The translations under genes and the position numbers were made by a program. Of a stretch of DNA of 64,000 nt, positions 14,879-20,573 are shown piece by piece (position 1 is the stretch's first letter; every line of letters starts with the position of its first letter). Below the pieces are notes generated by a model. It searched no databases. It was not told the origin of the DNA and was given only the letters and a program-made list of their open reading frames with translations. The stretch spans positions 288,001-352,000 of the forward strand of contig CAVTHO010000006.1 in the NCBI GenBank assembly GCA_963734545.1, written 5' to 3'. This DNA is from an uncultured Spirochaetota bacterium. GTDB taxonomy: Bacteria > Spirochaetota > Spirochaetia > SZUA-6 > Fen-1364.

Positions 14879-15004
14879 GAAGACGCCTCCTTCTTTGCCA
14901 CAATAGTAGCCATGAACACTTTCCTAATGCAAGGGAAAGCGCCGCGAGGAGGCCCGAGTGACTCATCCGCCCATGCAGTGATAGAATGAAGGAAAGGGGA
15001 TATC

Positions 15005-17157
15005 GTGCCGGAGGACGCAAGGATCGTATCGGGGCACTGCGGACTCTGCCCGTCCGGGTGCGCCGTCCGGATTTCGGTGGAAGGCAACCGGATCGGCAAA
15101 GTCGTGCCGCAGAAGCGCCGCCCGGATGCGGTGAGCTGCGCCCGGGTCAGCCATGCGGCCGACATCGTGCATGCGCCGGACCGGCTCCTGTATCCGCTGA
15201 AAAGGGCGGGCGCCCGGGGGAAAACCGTTTCGTGCGGATAAGCTGGGCAGAGGCCCTCGACACGATTGCCGTCGGGCTTCAGGATGTTGCGCGCCGGCAG
15301 GGCCCGCAGGCGGTCTGCATGTACACGGGCCGCGGAACATTCGAGAGGTCGCTCTGGGAGATGCTTGCCCCTGCCGGTGTGCGTGAAACGAGCGCCTGGA
15401 GCCTGCTCTTTCCGTTCGGCTCGCCCAACACGACCGGGGCCGGTTCCAACTGCTACGTGAGCCACGCGGTCCTCGCCCCTGCCGTCACGTTCGGCGTCTG
15501 GTGGGCGGACACGCTGCCTGATCTGGAAAACTCCCGGCTCATCGTGGTCTGGGGCACGAACCCCGCCAATGCCTCCCCTCCCGTGCTGATGCGCCGGATC
15601 GAAAAGGCCGTGCAGCGGGGGGCCAGGGTCGTGGTGATCGATCATCGACGCACCGAAACCGCCCGGCGCACCGGCGCGCAGTGGCTCGCAATCCGGCCCG
15701 GCACGGACGGCGCGCTGGCGCTTTCCATGATCCACGTGCTCATTGAAGAGGGGCTGCACGATCGGGAGTTCGCGGAGCGCTGGACCGTGGGCTTCGACGA
15801 GCTTCGAGCTTATGTCGCCGGCTTTCCGCCTGAAAAGGCCGAAGAGATGACCGGCATTCCTGCAGAGACCATCCGCGAGACGGCAAGGGCCATTGCGGCC
15901 TCCGGCGGCGCCGCCCTTCTTTCCTATACCGGGCTGGAATACACGAACAGCGGCGTGCAGAACATACGCGCGGTCAAGATACTCTGGAGCCTGTCAGGCA
16001 ACCTCGATGTCCCGGGCGGGAATCTCATCAAGATGCCGGACACTGATTTCAAGGTGAATACCGGCCATCGCCTCGAGCCGCCATCCGGCGTCGATCCGAT
16101 CGGGAAGAGCAAGTATCCCCTCTACCATCTTTTCAGAAAAGAAGCCCATGCAATGGAGCTGCCCACGGGCAATCCTCCACGATGACCCGTACCCGGTGCG
16201 CGCAATGCTGGTGTGGGGCGCGTCGATCATCACCGGCTATCCCAACCCCGGCCTGTGGCGGCGCGCTTTCTCCGCGCTCGACTTTCTTCTCGTGGTGGAC
16301 CGTTTTCCCACAGAGGACTCGCGCTACGCGGACATCATCCTGCCCGCTGCCACGTCCTTCGAGGAGGATTCCTACCTCATCTCGGGCCGCCGCGTGGAGC
16401 TGCGCCGCAAGGTCATCGAGCCGCAGGGGGAATCGCGGAGCGACTGGGACATCGTCGCGGCGATTGCCGGCAGGCTCGGATACGGTCACCTCTTCCCGCG
16501 CTCGTCCCGGGAAATGCTGCGCTGGGCGTTCGAGGGAACAGAGATCGACCTGGAGGAGCTGGAGAAGACCGGAGAGGTATCGCTCCCGGTTTCTCCCATG
16601 CGCTACCGCAAGTGGGAATCCGGACTCCTGCGCCGGGACGGGAAGCCCGGGTTCGACACGCCGTCCGGCAAGCTCGAGATTGCCTCGAGCATCCTGAAAG
16701 AAAACGGATACGACCCCCTGCCCGGTCTATGCACCGCCCCGGGAAGGGCCTTCGGCGGCCCCCGGGCTTTCCCGGGAGTTTCCCCTCGTGTTCAATTCAG
16801 GCTCGCGCAACAAGACTTTCTTCAACTCCCAGCACCACAACATCGCGCGCCTCGCCGCGCAGAGACCCAATCCCCAGGCGTGGATGAATCCGCGCGATGC
16901 GCGCCCTCGCGGCATTGCGAGCGGCGATGCCGTGGACGTGGTGACCCCGAGAGGCCGTGTCCGATTCGAGGCTTTTGTCACGGAGGATATCGCTCCGGGA
17001 GCCGTGGAGGTGGACGCATCCGGCGGCGGCCCGCTGGGACCCCGGTCCTGGAGGGAAGCCAATGTGAACGAGCTGACGGACAGCGAGAATCGGGACCCGC
17101 TCTCCGGTTTCCCGGTTTACAAAGCGCTGCTCTGCGACGTGCGCAAATCCAGTCTAG
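15005..17157 (+). CDS. Molybdopterin (bis-MGD) oxidoreductase, frameshifted; 3' end approximate
   Basis: CGLCPSGC..C Fe-S motif, DRLLYPLKR, ISWAEALD, WGTNP, RPGTDGALAL, ADIILPAA, TPSGKLEI, MNPRDA..RGI..GD; no obvious TAT signal. Confidence 0.85.
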
Positions 17158-18572
17158 AGCCCGAGCACCTTTTCCACTTCCCGGGCCATCTTGTCCGGGA
17201 GGGGCGTGCCCGGGTGGCTGTCCATGAGGGCCAGCGTCTTGTCCCTCACCCTGGCGTGAAGGTCTTTCGAGCCCGAGGATTGCCAGCCGTCAAAACGCTG
17301 CCGGTCGAAAAGCGTCGGCTGCCAGAACTCACGGAAATGATTCAGCGTGTGATCCTCGCCCAGAAAGTTTCCTCCCGGGCCCACGGCGTGCACGACATCC
17401 AGGGCAAGGGACTCCTCATCGATGGAGAACCCGCGGGCGAAATGCCTCATCATGCCGATCATGTCCGCCGTGAATACCATCATCTCCGGCGAGGTGATGA
17501 GCCCCGCCTCCAGGTATCCCACGTCATGGACGAGGTTCGTTCCGCCCAGCATGGCGGTCTGGACCGAAAAGACGGCGTCCGCCGCGGCCTGCTCGTCGAA
17601 CAGGATTCCGTCCGTGTGCCCCGCATAGCCCCAGCTCGGCAGGCCGTAGTACCGGCCCATGCACGCCACCGCGACCCGCGCAAGCTGGAACTCGGGAGCC
17701 CCGTACACGCTGATGGACGTTTTCATGTCCAGGTGGTGCAGACCGCTTCCATAGAGAAAGGGCGCGCCGGCGCGTTTCATCTGCTGAATGACCAGGCTGC
17801 TCAGCACTTCGGCGTTTCCCAGGGCGAGCCCTCCCGCGAGCGTCACGGGCGCCGTGCTGCCCATCATGGGGGCAGGTGAATGCACGACGGGCAGGCCCTG
17901 CTCCGCCATGTAGAGGAGCTTCTCGGTGGCGGTGCGGCTGTGCTGCAGCGGCGTGGTGGGCTCCGAGTACAGCAGCAGCGTGGGGTTGAGCCTCAGCTTC
18001 TCCATCCCGCCTGCCACCATGGCCGCGGCCTCCGCAATGGCGCGGCAGTCCGACTCGTCGTCGCACACGAAGACAACGGGTTTCACGCTGTTCTCTATGA
18101 GGGTGGCATACTGCCTGCGGTAGGTGCGGCCGGTGAAATCCCGCGGTATGCCCATGGACATGAGGAATGAAAGCTCGGGAAGAGCGTCGACCAGGCGCGC
18201 GCAGGCCTTCAGGTCCGCGAGGGTGAACGGCCGCCGCTCCCCGGTGCGGGGATCCAGGTAGTTGGGACAATCGGAACCGGGACCAAAGCTCGTCTCACCG
18301 GGGCGCAGCGCCACGGTGGCCCTGTCCGTGCCGCGCTCACAGAGGGCGATCTCGGAGGGGGCCTGCTTCAGGGCCCACTCGGCAAGTCCGGGTGGAATGC
18401 GCACCAGGTTGCCGTCGGTCACGGGGCAGCCGGAGTCGCGAAGCAGCGCAAGTGCTTCCTCGTGGTGCACCCGGACACCAGTCCGTCTCAAGATCTCGAG
18501 GGAGGCGTGGTGAATCATGTCGCACTGGGCCCGGTCCATGAGCTGAAGGGAGGGAATTGCGCGTGAAGTCAT
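17154..18572 (-). CDS. Trimethylamine methyltransferase (MttB) family protein, no pyrrolysine
   Basis: IHHASLEIL..TG, GSTAPVTLAG.LA..NAE.L, YGAPE, VGPGGNFL..DHTL..F; no in-frame TAG. Confidence 0.88.
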   Translation of the reverse strand: MTSRAIPSLQLMDRAQCDMIHHASLEILRRTGVRVHHEEALALLRDSGCPVTDGNLVRIPPGLAEWALKQAPSEIALCERGTDRATVALRPGETSFGPGSDCPNYLDPRTGERRPFTLADLKACARLVDALPELSFLMSMGIPRDFTGRTYRRQYATLIENSVKPVVFVCDDESDCRAIAEAAAMVAGGMEKLRLNPTLLLYSEPTTPLQHSRTATEKLLYMAEQGLPVVHSPAPMMGSTAPVTLAGGLALGNAEVLSSLVIQQMKRAGAPFLYGSGLHHLDMKTSISVYGAPEFQLARVAVACMGRYYGLPSWGYAGHTDGILFDEQAAADAVFSVQTAMLGGTNLVHDVGYLEAGLITSPEMMVFTADMIGMMRHFARGFSIDEESLALDVVHAVGPGGNFLGEDHTLNHFREFWQPTLFDRQRFDGWQSSGSKDLHARVRDKTLALMDSHPGTPLPDKMAREVEKVLGL

Positions 18573-18647
18573 GCCTTACGTATAGGCCGCGCGCCGCCCG
18601 CTGTCAAGAAAATGGCATGGGGGGTAGTGTCCTGACTTGAAAAGTCT

Positions 18648-19277
18648 TCAGGAATTCCTGTAGTCGATTGGATCCAGGCAATCATCATATTGCGCTCGGC
18701 TGATCTTGATCCAGTCAGTCCCGTCGATGCCTCTTGAGTTTTGCGTCCCCGGTCCGACCGGATATGCGCAAGCTGTCCCGATCCATTGGCCTTGCATCTT
18801 TGAAATGGTTTTCACTTCTTTGACAGCTTCGCTCAGATCTTGGTCTTGGCTAAATATAAGAGCAACATCATATGCATTGGCCAGAGCCAAGCGCACGATG
18901 TCCAGAGCAATTCGAACATCTACGCCCTTCTCTTGGCCAATGCGAGCCACCGTTGTACTGCCATCGGGCAAGAGGATTGTCCTTGGACGGTATCTAAGTG
19001 GGCGAGTGAATGAACGAATGCCCCGAGTGCCCATAACCGCAAGCTTCTTTGACCAAAACTTATGCCAATCAGGTTTTTCAACGGACCCAGGAATCCCGGT
19101 GTAGAAATAGATGCCTGATATCGTCCAGCCCTTTGCCTTGCACACTAGTTCCGTTAGCAGCTTTGGGTCATAGTTTGGGAAAGCGTACCCAAATGCTTCC
19201 TTTGCCTGATAGAAAAGGTTTTGGCCGTCAAAAAAGGCAACAACTCTTTTTATTGTTGGTTCGGTTGGCACTCTCAA
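18648..19277 (-). CDS. NYN domain (PIN-like) ribonuclease on an AT-rich insert
   Basis: FFDGQNL, QEKGVDVRIALD, FSQDQDL; GC clearly below flanks. Confidence 0.88.
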   Translation of the reverse strand: MRVPTEPTIKRVVAFFDGQNLFYQAKEAFGYAFPNYDPKLLTELVCKAKGWTISGIYFYTGIPGSVEKPDWHKFWSKKLAVMGTRGIRSFTRPLRYRPRTILLPDGSTTVARIGQEKGVDVRIALDIVRLALANAYDVALIFSQDQDLSEAVKEVKTISKMQGQWIGTACAYPVGPGTQNSRGIDGTDWIKISRAQYDDCLDPIDYRNS

Positions 19278-19285
19278 TACCTTTG

Positions 19286-19385
19286 AAAATAAAAAACCCC
19301 ACCGGAGGCCCGAAGGCTGATCCAGCGGGGATCAGATTCCTAACGAATCTATTGGTACTTTAGCTCCATAGAATCCCGGTGTCAA
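19286..19385 (-). promoter_or_regulatory. Promoter plus structured leader with terminator-like hairpin upstream of the NYN gene
   Basis: TTGACA (19385-19380)-17nt-TAAAGT; hairpin 19330-19297 with UUCG loop, then U-tract. Confidence 0.7.
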
Positions 19386-19582
19386 CAAAAAGATCGGAAA
19401 ATCTACGAAAAGAATCAATACTAGAAATATTTAATATCTCTATTATGAATCAGCCTTCCCAAACAGGCGTTCCCTTATAGTGCTCGTCAATATGAACGGA
19501 GCGAAGCCAGGGGCCGCGGGACGACCTACTTGACCGCCGCACGGCGAAGGTTATTTTAGTGTCTGGAAGAAGGAGAGCGAAA

Positions 19583-20573
19583 ATGAAGCCGGTCGTCTGG
19601 GGCATACTTTCCGTATCAACGCACTACAGGCTGCGCGTGCACACGTTTCTGAAGAAATCTCCGCTCGTGGATATCCGCGGCATCGCCTCACGCTCGAGGG
19701 AAAGGGCAAGCGAGGCGGCACGCGATCTCGGGCTCCAGAAGGCGTATGGGTCCTACGAGGAGCTGCTGGCGGATCGGGAGATCGAGGCCGTCTATATCCC
19801 GCTTCCCAACCACATGCACGCGGAGTGGGTGAAAAAGGCGGCGGACGCGGGCAAGCACGTCCTCTGCGAGAAGCCCTTTGCCATGGACGCGAAGGAAGCG
19901 GAACAGGCCATCCGGCACGCCGAGCGCAAGGGAGTGCTCGTGATGGAGGCTTTCATGTACCGGTTCCATCCCCAGTGGAAGAGGGCGCGGGAGATCGTCC
20001 GGGCCGGTGAGATCGGGGAAGTGCAATCGGTGAACACGATCTTCTCCTACATGCTGACAGATCCGTCCAACATCAGGAACGTCCTTGCCGCGGGCGGCGG
20101 AGCCATCCCTGACATCGGCTGCTATGCCGTCTCCAGCGCGCGCTTCCTGGTGGGCCGGGAGCCTGTCCGGGTGGTCAGCCTCGTGCATCGCGACCCGAAG
20201 CTCAAGACCGACATCCTCACCTCCGGGATCCTGGATTTCGGCAAGGCGCGCTGTGTCTTCACGATCGGCACGCAGAGCTTCCCCTGGCAGCGCGTGGATG
20301 TCCTGGGCTCCGGCGGCGAGCTTTCCGTGCATCATCCCCTTCAATGCCTTCCCCGACGTGCCCATGCAGGTGAGCGTCACCACGGGGGTCGGCCCGAGGA
20401 ACTACCTCTCTCCCCCGTCCGATCAGTACGTGGAAATGTTCGAGCCTTTCTCCCGTGCAGTACGGGAAGGCGGTCCCGCGCCCACGCCGCCGCAGGATGC
20501 GATTGACAACATGAAGGTGCTGGACGCGTTGTTCCGCTCGGAGAAATCCGGGACCTGGGAGCAGGTAGGGTAG
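19583..20573 (+). CDS. Gfo/Idh/MocA family oxidoreductase, frameshifted
   Basis: YGSYEELL, VYIPLPNHMH, KHVLCEKP, EAFMYRFHPQW, DIGCY. Confidence 0.9.

Follow-up and report, generated by a model that had tools for sequence, protein, structure and literature searches.

A few protein toxins are governed by a structured RNA that is encoded in cis. In the type III systems ToxIN, CptIN and TenpIN, which are described as phage-defence loci, an RNA partner and a terminator precede the gene of an endoribonuclease, and the terminator is reported to set the ratio of RNA to toxin. In the AbiF/RCd22 system of Clostridioides difficile the terminator is reported to lower toxin expression 17-fold, and RCd22 to bind and neutralise the AbiF toxin in cis as well as in trans (10.1101/2025.04.15.648962). 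Here we report on a locus of comparable layout in a stretch of 64,000 nt, called the window throughout, from an uncultured Spirochaetota bacterium (assembly GCA_963734545.1, contig CAVTHO010000006.1, positions 288,001 to 352,000). On the minus strand of the window a promoter, a short leader with a conserved hairpin and a gene for a predicted ribonuclease of the NYN family form a unit of about 0.75 kb.

AbiF/RCd22 is the closest worked example of the mechanism that we propose below. It is described as comprising a sigma-A promoter, a short non-coding RNA with one or more conserved hairpin motifs, a Rho-independent terminator, a ribosome-binding site and a toxic RNA-targeting protein. An initial annotation, made from the letters of the window, had offered a type III or AbiF-like RNA antitoxin and an autoregulatory attenuator as possible readings, and a layout of the former kind is borne out: promoter, short RNA, terminator and RNase gene follow one another in matching order, the RNA and terminator lying directly 5′ of the predicted endoribonuclease gene behind one promoter. 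The parts themselves differ, however. AbiF is Abi_2/HEPN-like and the type III toxins belong to the ToxN, CptN and TenpN families, whereas the window protein is an NYN protein, known like its whole module from sequence alone. RCd22 carries two abiF hairpins and a separate terminator; in the window leader a single hairpin is itself the terminator stem. Type III antitoxins are tandem repeats which are cut by the toxin and whose units form cyclic complexes. Tandem direct repeats of this kind do not characterise the window family, which has one unit and rarely two: the hairpin is single in 78 of the 81 sources analysed here and has a second copy in three.

Two further systems invite comparison. 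HEC-09, a candidate defence family, is described as a NYN/MARF1-like predicted RNase embedded in a defence system (Hma); the part of its description at hand does not mention a leader RNA. The anticodon nuclease PrrC is a latent RNase inside the EcoprrI type I restriction–modification locus, where it is silenced by the restriction–modification proteins. Likewise, NYN genes of the family described here lie among hsd genes, between hsdM and hsdS, in seven loci, but the module has an RNA element of its own and is found by itself as well.

A conserved RNA hairpin in front of NYN genes

The main hairpin of the leader is 34 nt long (19297..19330; all coordinates in the window refer to the minus strand unless given without strand) and reads CCCCGCTGGA-TCA-GCC-TTCG-GGC-C-TCCGGTGGGG. 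A 10-bp stem is followed by a 3x1 internal loop with an invariant C at 19307, a 3-bp GCC/GGC stem and a UUCG tetraloop; directly 3′ of the stem stands the U-tract TTTTTTATTTT (U6AU4, 19286..19296). RNAfold places two hairpins in the stretch 19360–19265 with −35.2 kcal/mol (z = −3.33), a stability which none of 200 shuffles reached.

To compare leaders we scanned GTDB with one genome per species. The scan yielded 494 pattern matches, of which 480 were encoding stretches; the 80 best of these were fetched. The leader alignment comprises 72 leaders, namely the window and 71 loci. Nine loci (L025, L050, L051, L059, L064, L074, L075, L077 and L091) were omitted, as our simple hairpin finder failed or picked another hairpin or the flank was too short. 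Across the 72 leaders the 13 hairpin pairs are paired in 99.4% of 935 cells, and when the 3′ partners are slid by 1–3 columns pairing falls to 42–60%. Changes on both sides are found in nine of the 13 pairs, as against 3.1 ± 1.0 in shuffled alignments, and not one of 500 shuffles reached the observed value in any of five measures. With a covariance model built from the alignment (R1), a match was obtained immediately 5′ of the NYN gene in every one of the 81 sources, also in the nine loci that had been omitted; in 509 kb searched on both strands the model gives 84 matches, that is only three extra copies beyond the 81 leaders. The fitted alignment of 84 rows retains 98.7% pairing and again shows nine pairs with double changes. 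In the window the full match to the model spans 19285..19344 (63.9 bits, E = 1.7e-13). This confirms that the main hairpin, read by the initial annotation as a terminator, is a real conserved RNA structure tied to the NYN family and not a chance fold. Its loop is variable: the stable tetraloops GCAA, GAAA, GUAA and UUCG occur and sometimes the upper stem is longer. G–U pairs make up 110 of the 935 cells (summed from the pair types); on the opposite strand they would not pair, and the structured strand is thus the sense RNA.

The primary sequence is conserved as well. Mean pairwise identity is 77% in the hairpin, 68% in the 8-nt flank on its 5′ side and 67% in the U-tract; within the gene the first two codon positions are 73% and the third is 38% identical, so that the hairpin is conserved to the same degree as codon positions 1 and 2. 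All 72 leaders agree in eleven columns, which include a CCC/GGG clamp and the first U after the stem. Some of the invariant bases are unpaired, namely the bulged C opposite the 3-nt internal loop as well as an A and a U of the 5′ flank. In the window this single-stranded flank reads AATCTGAT (19331..19338; family consensus UAUYURCY), with A 19337 and T 19334 in the invariant columns.

Linkage of the hairpin to the NYN family

The RNA and the gene travel together. In the 5.1-Mb genome of the window the protein and the RNA (model R1) each occur once. Among 41 related genomes a protein search found a full-length close NYN protein in G000, G002, G007, G008 and G010; it further revealed fragments in G015, a copy in G024 that is broken and, in G030, a relative of 32% identity. 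The RNA model matched seven of the 41, namely the five with a full-length protein, where the RNA adjoins the gene in each case, as well as G024 and G016; in the latter, promoter and hairpin stand before an NYN gene that has lost a large internal part, with hsdM next. In 151 genomes sampled across the phylum there was one strong RNA match (G110), with an NYN gene after it. A weaker match in G179 (31 bits) proved to be an ordinary terminator with no NYN gene and was rejected.

We also searched in the opposite direction with a degenerate hairpin pattern, which was run against metagenome contigs and found at least 120 stretches, of which 80 were fetched. In 61 of these 80 loci an NYN gene (41–69% identical) starts at most 150 nt downstream; three loci were too short and 16 lacked a full gene. 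The NYN gene thus stands directly downstream in 61 of 77 assessable loci. Within the 16 loci without a full gene, the family profile finds NYN fragments in seven (four clear and three weak N-terminal ones with E-values of 0.1–0.9), and the hairpins of the other nine are orphans. The pattern can find intact hairpins only; orphans and remnants are therefore no proof of selection on the RNA. Taken together, the hairpin is tightly and almost exclusively linked to the NYN family.

More distant relatives delimit this linkage. A 48% relative on a viral contig has kept the hairpin; for the 32% relative that we examined the hairpin is absent. Methylobacterium bullatum (L113:3892-3951) codes for a 52% relative behind a weaker hairpin (29 bits, one mismatch) without a U-tract, and is a natural case in which the hairpin is separated from termination.

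Additional copies of the hairpin were observed at a few loci. In L059 (2822-2981) the entire unit of promoter and hairpin is duplicated in tandem. L079 (298-499) has a second hairpin 142 nt upstream with a −10-like TAAAGT before it. In L075 (1674-1733) an orphan promoter and hairpin, identical to the first copy of the locus, lie about 1 kb downstream of the NYN gene. A metagenome locus (L189) with two directly adjacent hairpins is the third tandem case.

Promoter, terminator and start codon

All features that the initial annotation had listed, namely the promoter, a small hairpin, the main hairpin, the U-tract and a 7-bp alternative stem, are present in the window. The sigma-70-type promoter spans 19357..19385, with −35 TTGACA at 19385–19380, −10 TAAAGT at 19362–19357 and a 17-nt spacer (10 of 12 in our promoter scan), and transcription would start near A 19350. 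In 58 of the 81 leaders the 110 nt upstream contain a promoter-like site with a score of 9 of 12 or more; for two of the 81 the upstream DNA was too short. Of the 58 scored promoters, 33 have a −10 that ends 9–19 nt before the stem (mode 16) and 23 one that ends 25–35 nt before it; the window promoter belongs to this second spacing class with 26 nt.

In its anatomy the hairpin corresponds to an intrinsic terminator: 13 pairs (10 + 3) make up a GC-rich stem, and a U-tract comes directly after it. Over the 81 leaders its median folding energy is −22.8 kcal/mol, with extremes of −32.5 and −15.3, and in 71 of them seven or eight of the first nine nucleotides after the stem are T. From the end of the stem to the start codon the median distance is 24 nt (range 9–90). 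Such a gap cannot accommodate a promoter, and an NYN mRNA can hence arise only by transcription through the hairpin.

The start codon had to be moved. The list of open reading frames (ORFs) gave TTG 19277 (209 aa), and alignment with 26 homologues places the start at GTG 19271 ("MPTEP..."), so that the gene spans 18648..19271 and codes for 207 aa. The U-tract, said in the annotation to lie just before the start codon, was thus correctly seen but ends 14 nt 5′ of the corrected start. A weak Shine–Dalgarno-like AAAGG (19280..19284) is found 8 nt 5′ of GTG 19271; many homologues have GGGGAGG at this position.

A canonical terminator hairpin was also observed in front of a distant NYN gene (28% identical) on 4.2-kb ColRNAI-type plasmids of Klebsiella (L116:880-935, H4-H7). 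It reads AAAAAGGCCTGCA-TATG-CAGGCCTTTTT and lies about 20 nt 5′ of the NYN start; the upstream gene is divergent. A terminator hairpin before the start may be a general habit of NYN genes.

The NYN protein

The gene product carries the NYN domain PF01936 (E = 1.7e-9, 38.8 bits versus a cut-off of 24.2), as do all of the 120 best homologues, which are 60–93% identical to the window protein and all about 200–240 aa long. In total 4060 of 4456 candidates are relatives at E ≤ 1e-3. An alignment of 27 sequences shows the invariant acidic motifs FDGQN, EKGxDVRxALD and FSQDQDL, with D17, D120, D126, D145 and D147 unchanged throughout; the motifs agree with the pattern of the acidic active site in PIN-like/NYN nucleases, and the five residues may be the catalytic ones. 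A confident AlphaFold2 model (pLDDT 85.1, pTM 0.81) has as its top fold match in the PDB the entry 2qip (VPA0982 of Vibrio parahaemolyticus; Foldseek E = 1.3e-6, TM 0.51/0.64). The entry is titled "unknown function" and presumably belongs to the LabA/NYN family, a label on which our assignment of a PIN-like/LabA-like fold leans. With 2qip the window protein shares 19% identity, and its family adds about 50 conserved C-terminal residues (W165...DYR207).

In a Pfam scan at E ≤ 0.1 only NYN was found in the protein and no ToxN, CptN or TenpN family; the NCBIfam scan returned no family, and in a sequence-profile search of the PDB nothing meaningful was found (best E = 0.048, a histidine kinase). 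The best match in the PADLOC library is the candidate HEC-09 (E = 3.8e-13; residues 8–158 on profile positions 2–147 of 203), a profile for which the library lists no curated cut-off.

Proposed mechanism and alternatives

We tentatively favour the explanation that the hairpin is an intrinsic terminator throttling the NYN gene and that the nuclease also recognises the short RNA which this produces in abundance, in a manner akin to AbiF/RCd22 or the type III systems. The module would be a self-contained mobile unit of a strong promoter, a short leader RNA and a predicted NYN ribonuclease gene. Hairpin and U-tract would terminate most transcripts and yield an abundant RNA of about 55–75 nt, and the NYN protein could be made only by read-through, hence in small amounts. 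A protein would read the hairpin, most simply NYN itself: from the conserved hairpin sequence and the invariant unpaired bases we infer specific recognition by NYN. Either this short RNA or the hairpin as part of the mRNA could then hold NYN inactive or repress it, and the module might act as an abortive-infection or addiction-type defence gene. In this way the leader RNA would keep a potentially toxic defence nuclease in check. The additional copies in L059, L079, L189 and L075 fit a functional short-RNA unit, as do the hairpins kept beside deleted NYN genes.

A further-reaching version is possible, and we put it forward with reserve. One RNA of about 55 nt would use its single hairpin both as the terminator and as a specific inhibitor or substrate mimic of the NYN endoribonuclease, and the module would represent a new minimal class of toxin–antitoxin or abortive-infection system, a 0.75-kb cassette found across more than 20 differently labelled lineages and in restriction–modification operons. 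If so, the NYN (PIN-like) family would join the few protein toxins governed by a cis-encoded structured RNA, and a single terminator hairpin could be the regulatory RNA. Judged by analogy, what would be new is a toxin family, NYN, for the type III/AbiF-like RNA-governed RNases and an unusually small RNA which doubles as terminator.

Several points weigh against the explanation that we favour. The family has one hairpin unit, whereas the known type III antitoxins are repeat arrays processed by the toxin. HEC-09, the nearest candidate defence family, is reported to have given no protection against the phages tested. As the hairpin of Methylobacterium lacks a U-tract, termination is not universal. 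The hairpins beside decayed NYN genes could be the result of recent deletion and not of selection. Any strong terminator needs the CCCC/GGGG clamp and the U-tract, and part of the conservation could serve termination alone. Finally, most of the 80 loci (about 53) lie, like the window, among ordinary housekeeping genes.

Alternatively, the regulation could act in cis only: NYN would bind or cleave the hairpin on its own mRNA and thereby repress translation or destabilise the message, with no antitoxin acting in trans. There is precedent, since RNase III, RNase E and Regnase-1 regulate themselves via hairpins in their own mRNAs. Conservation at the sequence level together with the invariant unpaired bases points to recognition by a protein here too, and the hairpin and U-tract adjoin the Shine–Dalgarno site, the hairpin being about 12–15 nt away from it, in keeping with the short gap between stem and start. 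We nevertheless regard this as rather unlikely, because it leaves the conserved U-tract unexplained and accounts neither for the duplicate in L059, the second hairpin in L079 and the orphan unit in L075 nor for the hairpins beside decayed NYN genes.

That the leader is a passive attenuator seems unlikely. The hairpin would be only a strong constitutive terminator which lowers the level of a harmful nuclease and is not recognised by any protein. Its canonical anatomy is what one would expect of such an element, and the distant NYN gene of the Klebsiella plasmids also has a terminator hairpin before its start. Terminators, however, rarely keep their sequence across phyla, and this hairpin is 77% identical where synonymous sites are 38% identical. 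The bulged C and the A and U of the flank are invariant but not needed for termination, and in Methylobacterium the hairpin is kept without a U-tract.

Quite improbable, in our judgement, is a role as 5′ stabiliser and translational enhancer, in which the mRNA would be shielded at its 5′ end by the hairpin and ribosomes would be drawn in by the U-tract, with little termination. The hairpin is indeed close to the 5′ end where the −10 ends 9–19 nt before the stem, and a U-rich stretch lies just 5′ of the Shine–Dalgarno site. Yet a GC-rich stem of 13 pairs followed by seven or eight U is a textbook termination signal, and the invariance of the sequence as well as the orphan and duplicated units would go unexplained.

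The initial annotation had further proposed a terminator/antiterminator switch, in which the alternative stem CTGATCC/GGATCAG (19317..19335) competes with the terminator; such a switch would be under the control of a ligand or factor. The 7 bp are perfect in the window, hold with one G–U pair in a 93% relative, and would form first during transcription. Nowhere else among the leaders does this stem hold: only 67.4% of its cells are paired, 68 of the 72 leaders have a broken centre pair, and its covariation measures are reached by 44 to 483 of 500 shuffles. The switch is therefore not a property of the family. The small 5′ hairpin AGATTC/GAATCT (19334..19350; seen in the sequence and by RNAfold) did not fare better as a family feature, since it lies in the unconserved part of the leader, where columns 2–7 have a mean pairwise identity of 27%. 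Where the −10 ends 9–19 nt before the stem, only about 10 nt of RNA would be left for a sensor, and the alternative stem, roughly estimated at −9 kcal/mol, faces a terminator of −22.8 kcal/mol (median). A switch is thus very improbable. An element acting at the DNA level, that is a recombination or transposition site which moves the cassette, can hardly be credited: the module is clearly mobile and no mechanism for this is visible, but the G–U pairs would not match on the opposite strand, the position of the hairpin is some 55 nt inside the unit and not at its end, and neither a linked recombinase (neighbour scans and ORF clustering) nor a target duplication or terminal repeats were found.

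Distribution

By the titles of their records, the best 80 of the 480 GTDB loci come from Spirochaetota, Deltaproteobacteria, Acidobacteriota, Planctomycetota, Verrucomicrobiota and Omnitrophota as well as from Kiritimatiellia, Nitrospirota, Chloroflexota, Actinomycetota, Bacteroidota, Armatimonadota and others. With 480 loci in GTDB representatives and at least 120 metagenome stretches the family is widespread in environmental bacteria. IMG/VR holds three loci only, and the INPHARED phage genomes gave no match. Among plasmids there was one close match, on a 2.8-Mb Methylobacterium replicon, the remainder being at most 32% identical.

The RNA motif, which is short and has very good support from covariation, is absent from Rfam 15. 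A cmscan of 18300–19900 at E ≤ 10 gave three matches, all far below the gathering score and none on the hairpin; no Rfam 15 family, abiF (RF03085) included, matches the leader. In the literature, judged from listings and abstracts, we found no account of an RNA motif that precedes NYN genes, and the leader is probably an undescribed RNA.

Mobility and genomic neighbourhood

The module lies in a low-GC insertion of about 0.9 kb (18618..19527, edges approximate, no strand), recognised by the GC profile, with 43–53% GC within DNA of about 65% GC, and by empty sites in relatives. It is found between divergent genes of the MttB family and the GFO/IDH/MocA family (Pfam). In two genomes of the same genus, G014 and G002, these flanks are about 50 nt apart and the insertion is absent, from which its approximate limits follow. 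The NYN gene had been called a standalone, horizontally acquired nuclease, and the empty sites agree with this. In G010 the 93% relative has a different neighbourhood, and similarity to it is restricted to window positions 18650–19394, from the stop codon to just past the −35. The transferred unit hence consists of promoter, leader and ORF. At the island edges no target-site duplication or terminal repeats were seen.

All-against-all clustering of the ORFs of the 80 loci revealed no conserved protein partner beside NYN; apart from NYN and shadow frames only hsdM and hsdS form clusters, with 10 loci each. By Pfam, hsdM is the direct upstream neighbour in 8 of 69 cases (in 11 loci no ORF of 100 aa or more lies upstream), and hsdS follows NYN in seven loci. 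The downstream scan covered 66 proteins, namely 60 of 75 immediate neighbours (15 short ORFs were dropped) and six further ORFs. Other neighbours are an Eco57I-type methylase, a C-5 methylase, Cas10, ThsA-Macro, HEPN proteins and HipA_C, and also WYL, ORF6N, Hypoth_Ymh, integrases and transposases. In about 27 of the 80 loci a neighbour belongs to restriction–modification, defence, toxin–antitoxin or mobile functions, as labelled from Pfam names. Away from the window the unit is thus often set within type I restriction–modification operons or other defence or mobile surroundings, defence islands among them. No Hma system was suggested among the scanned neighbours, in a scan with no search aimed at Hma. 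Where it stands between hsdM and hsdS, the NYN gene is a specific candidate for an RNase that acts in second-line defence and is coupled to restriction–modification.

At two loci the end of the NYN ORF overlaps the next start by 4 nt, that of hsdS in L042 (3633-3636) and that of an Eco57I-type methylase in L023 (3633-3636). The overlaps suggest co-transcription and translational coupling through the leader terminator. In L066 (3961-4719) a second, different NYN protein (PF01936, E = 7e-11) is encoded just downstream of the module, inside a type I restriction–modification locus, and in L061 (994-3627) the NYN module is directly followed by a Cas10/Csm1-like gene.

Two minor observations concern the window. 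Upstream of the promoter, a 13-nt stretch (19446–19458) is 92% complementary to 19312–19324, that is to the 5′ arm and loop of the hairpin; it may be the remnant of an inverted copy or due to chance; by a rough expectation about 0.4 such pairs would occur in the region. On the plus strand at about 15005–17150, one long gene is apparently split across three frames (ORFs 14986–16185, 16148–17227 and 16788–17879). Its translations resemble by eye a molybdopterin oxidoreductase, and frameshifts or assembly indels could be the cause of the split.

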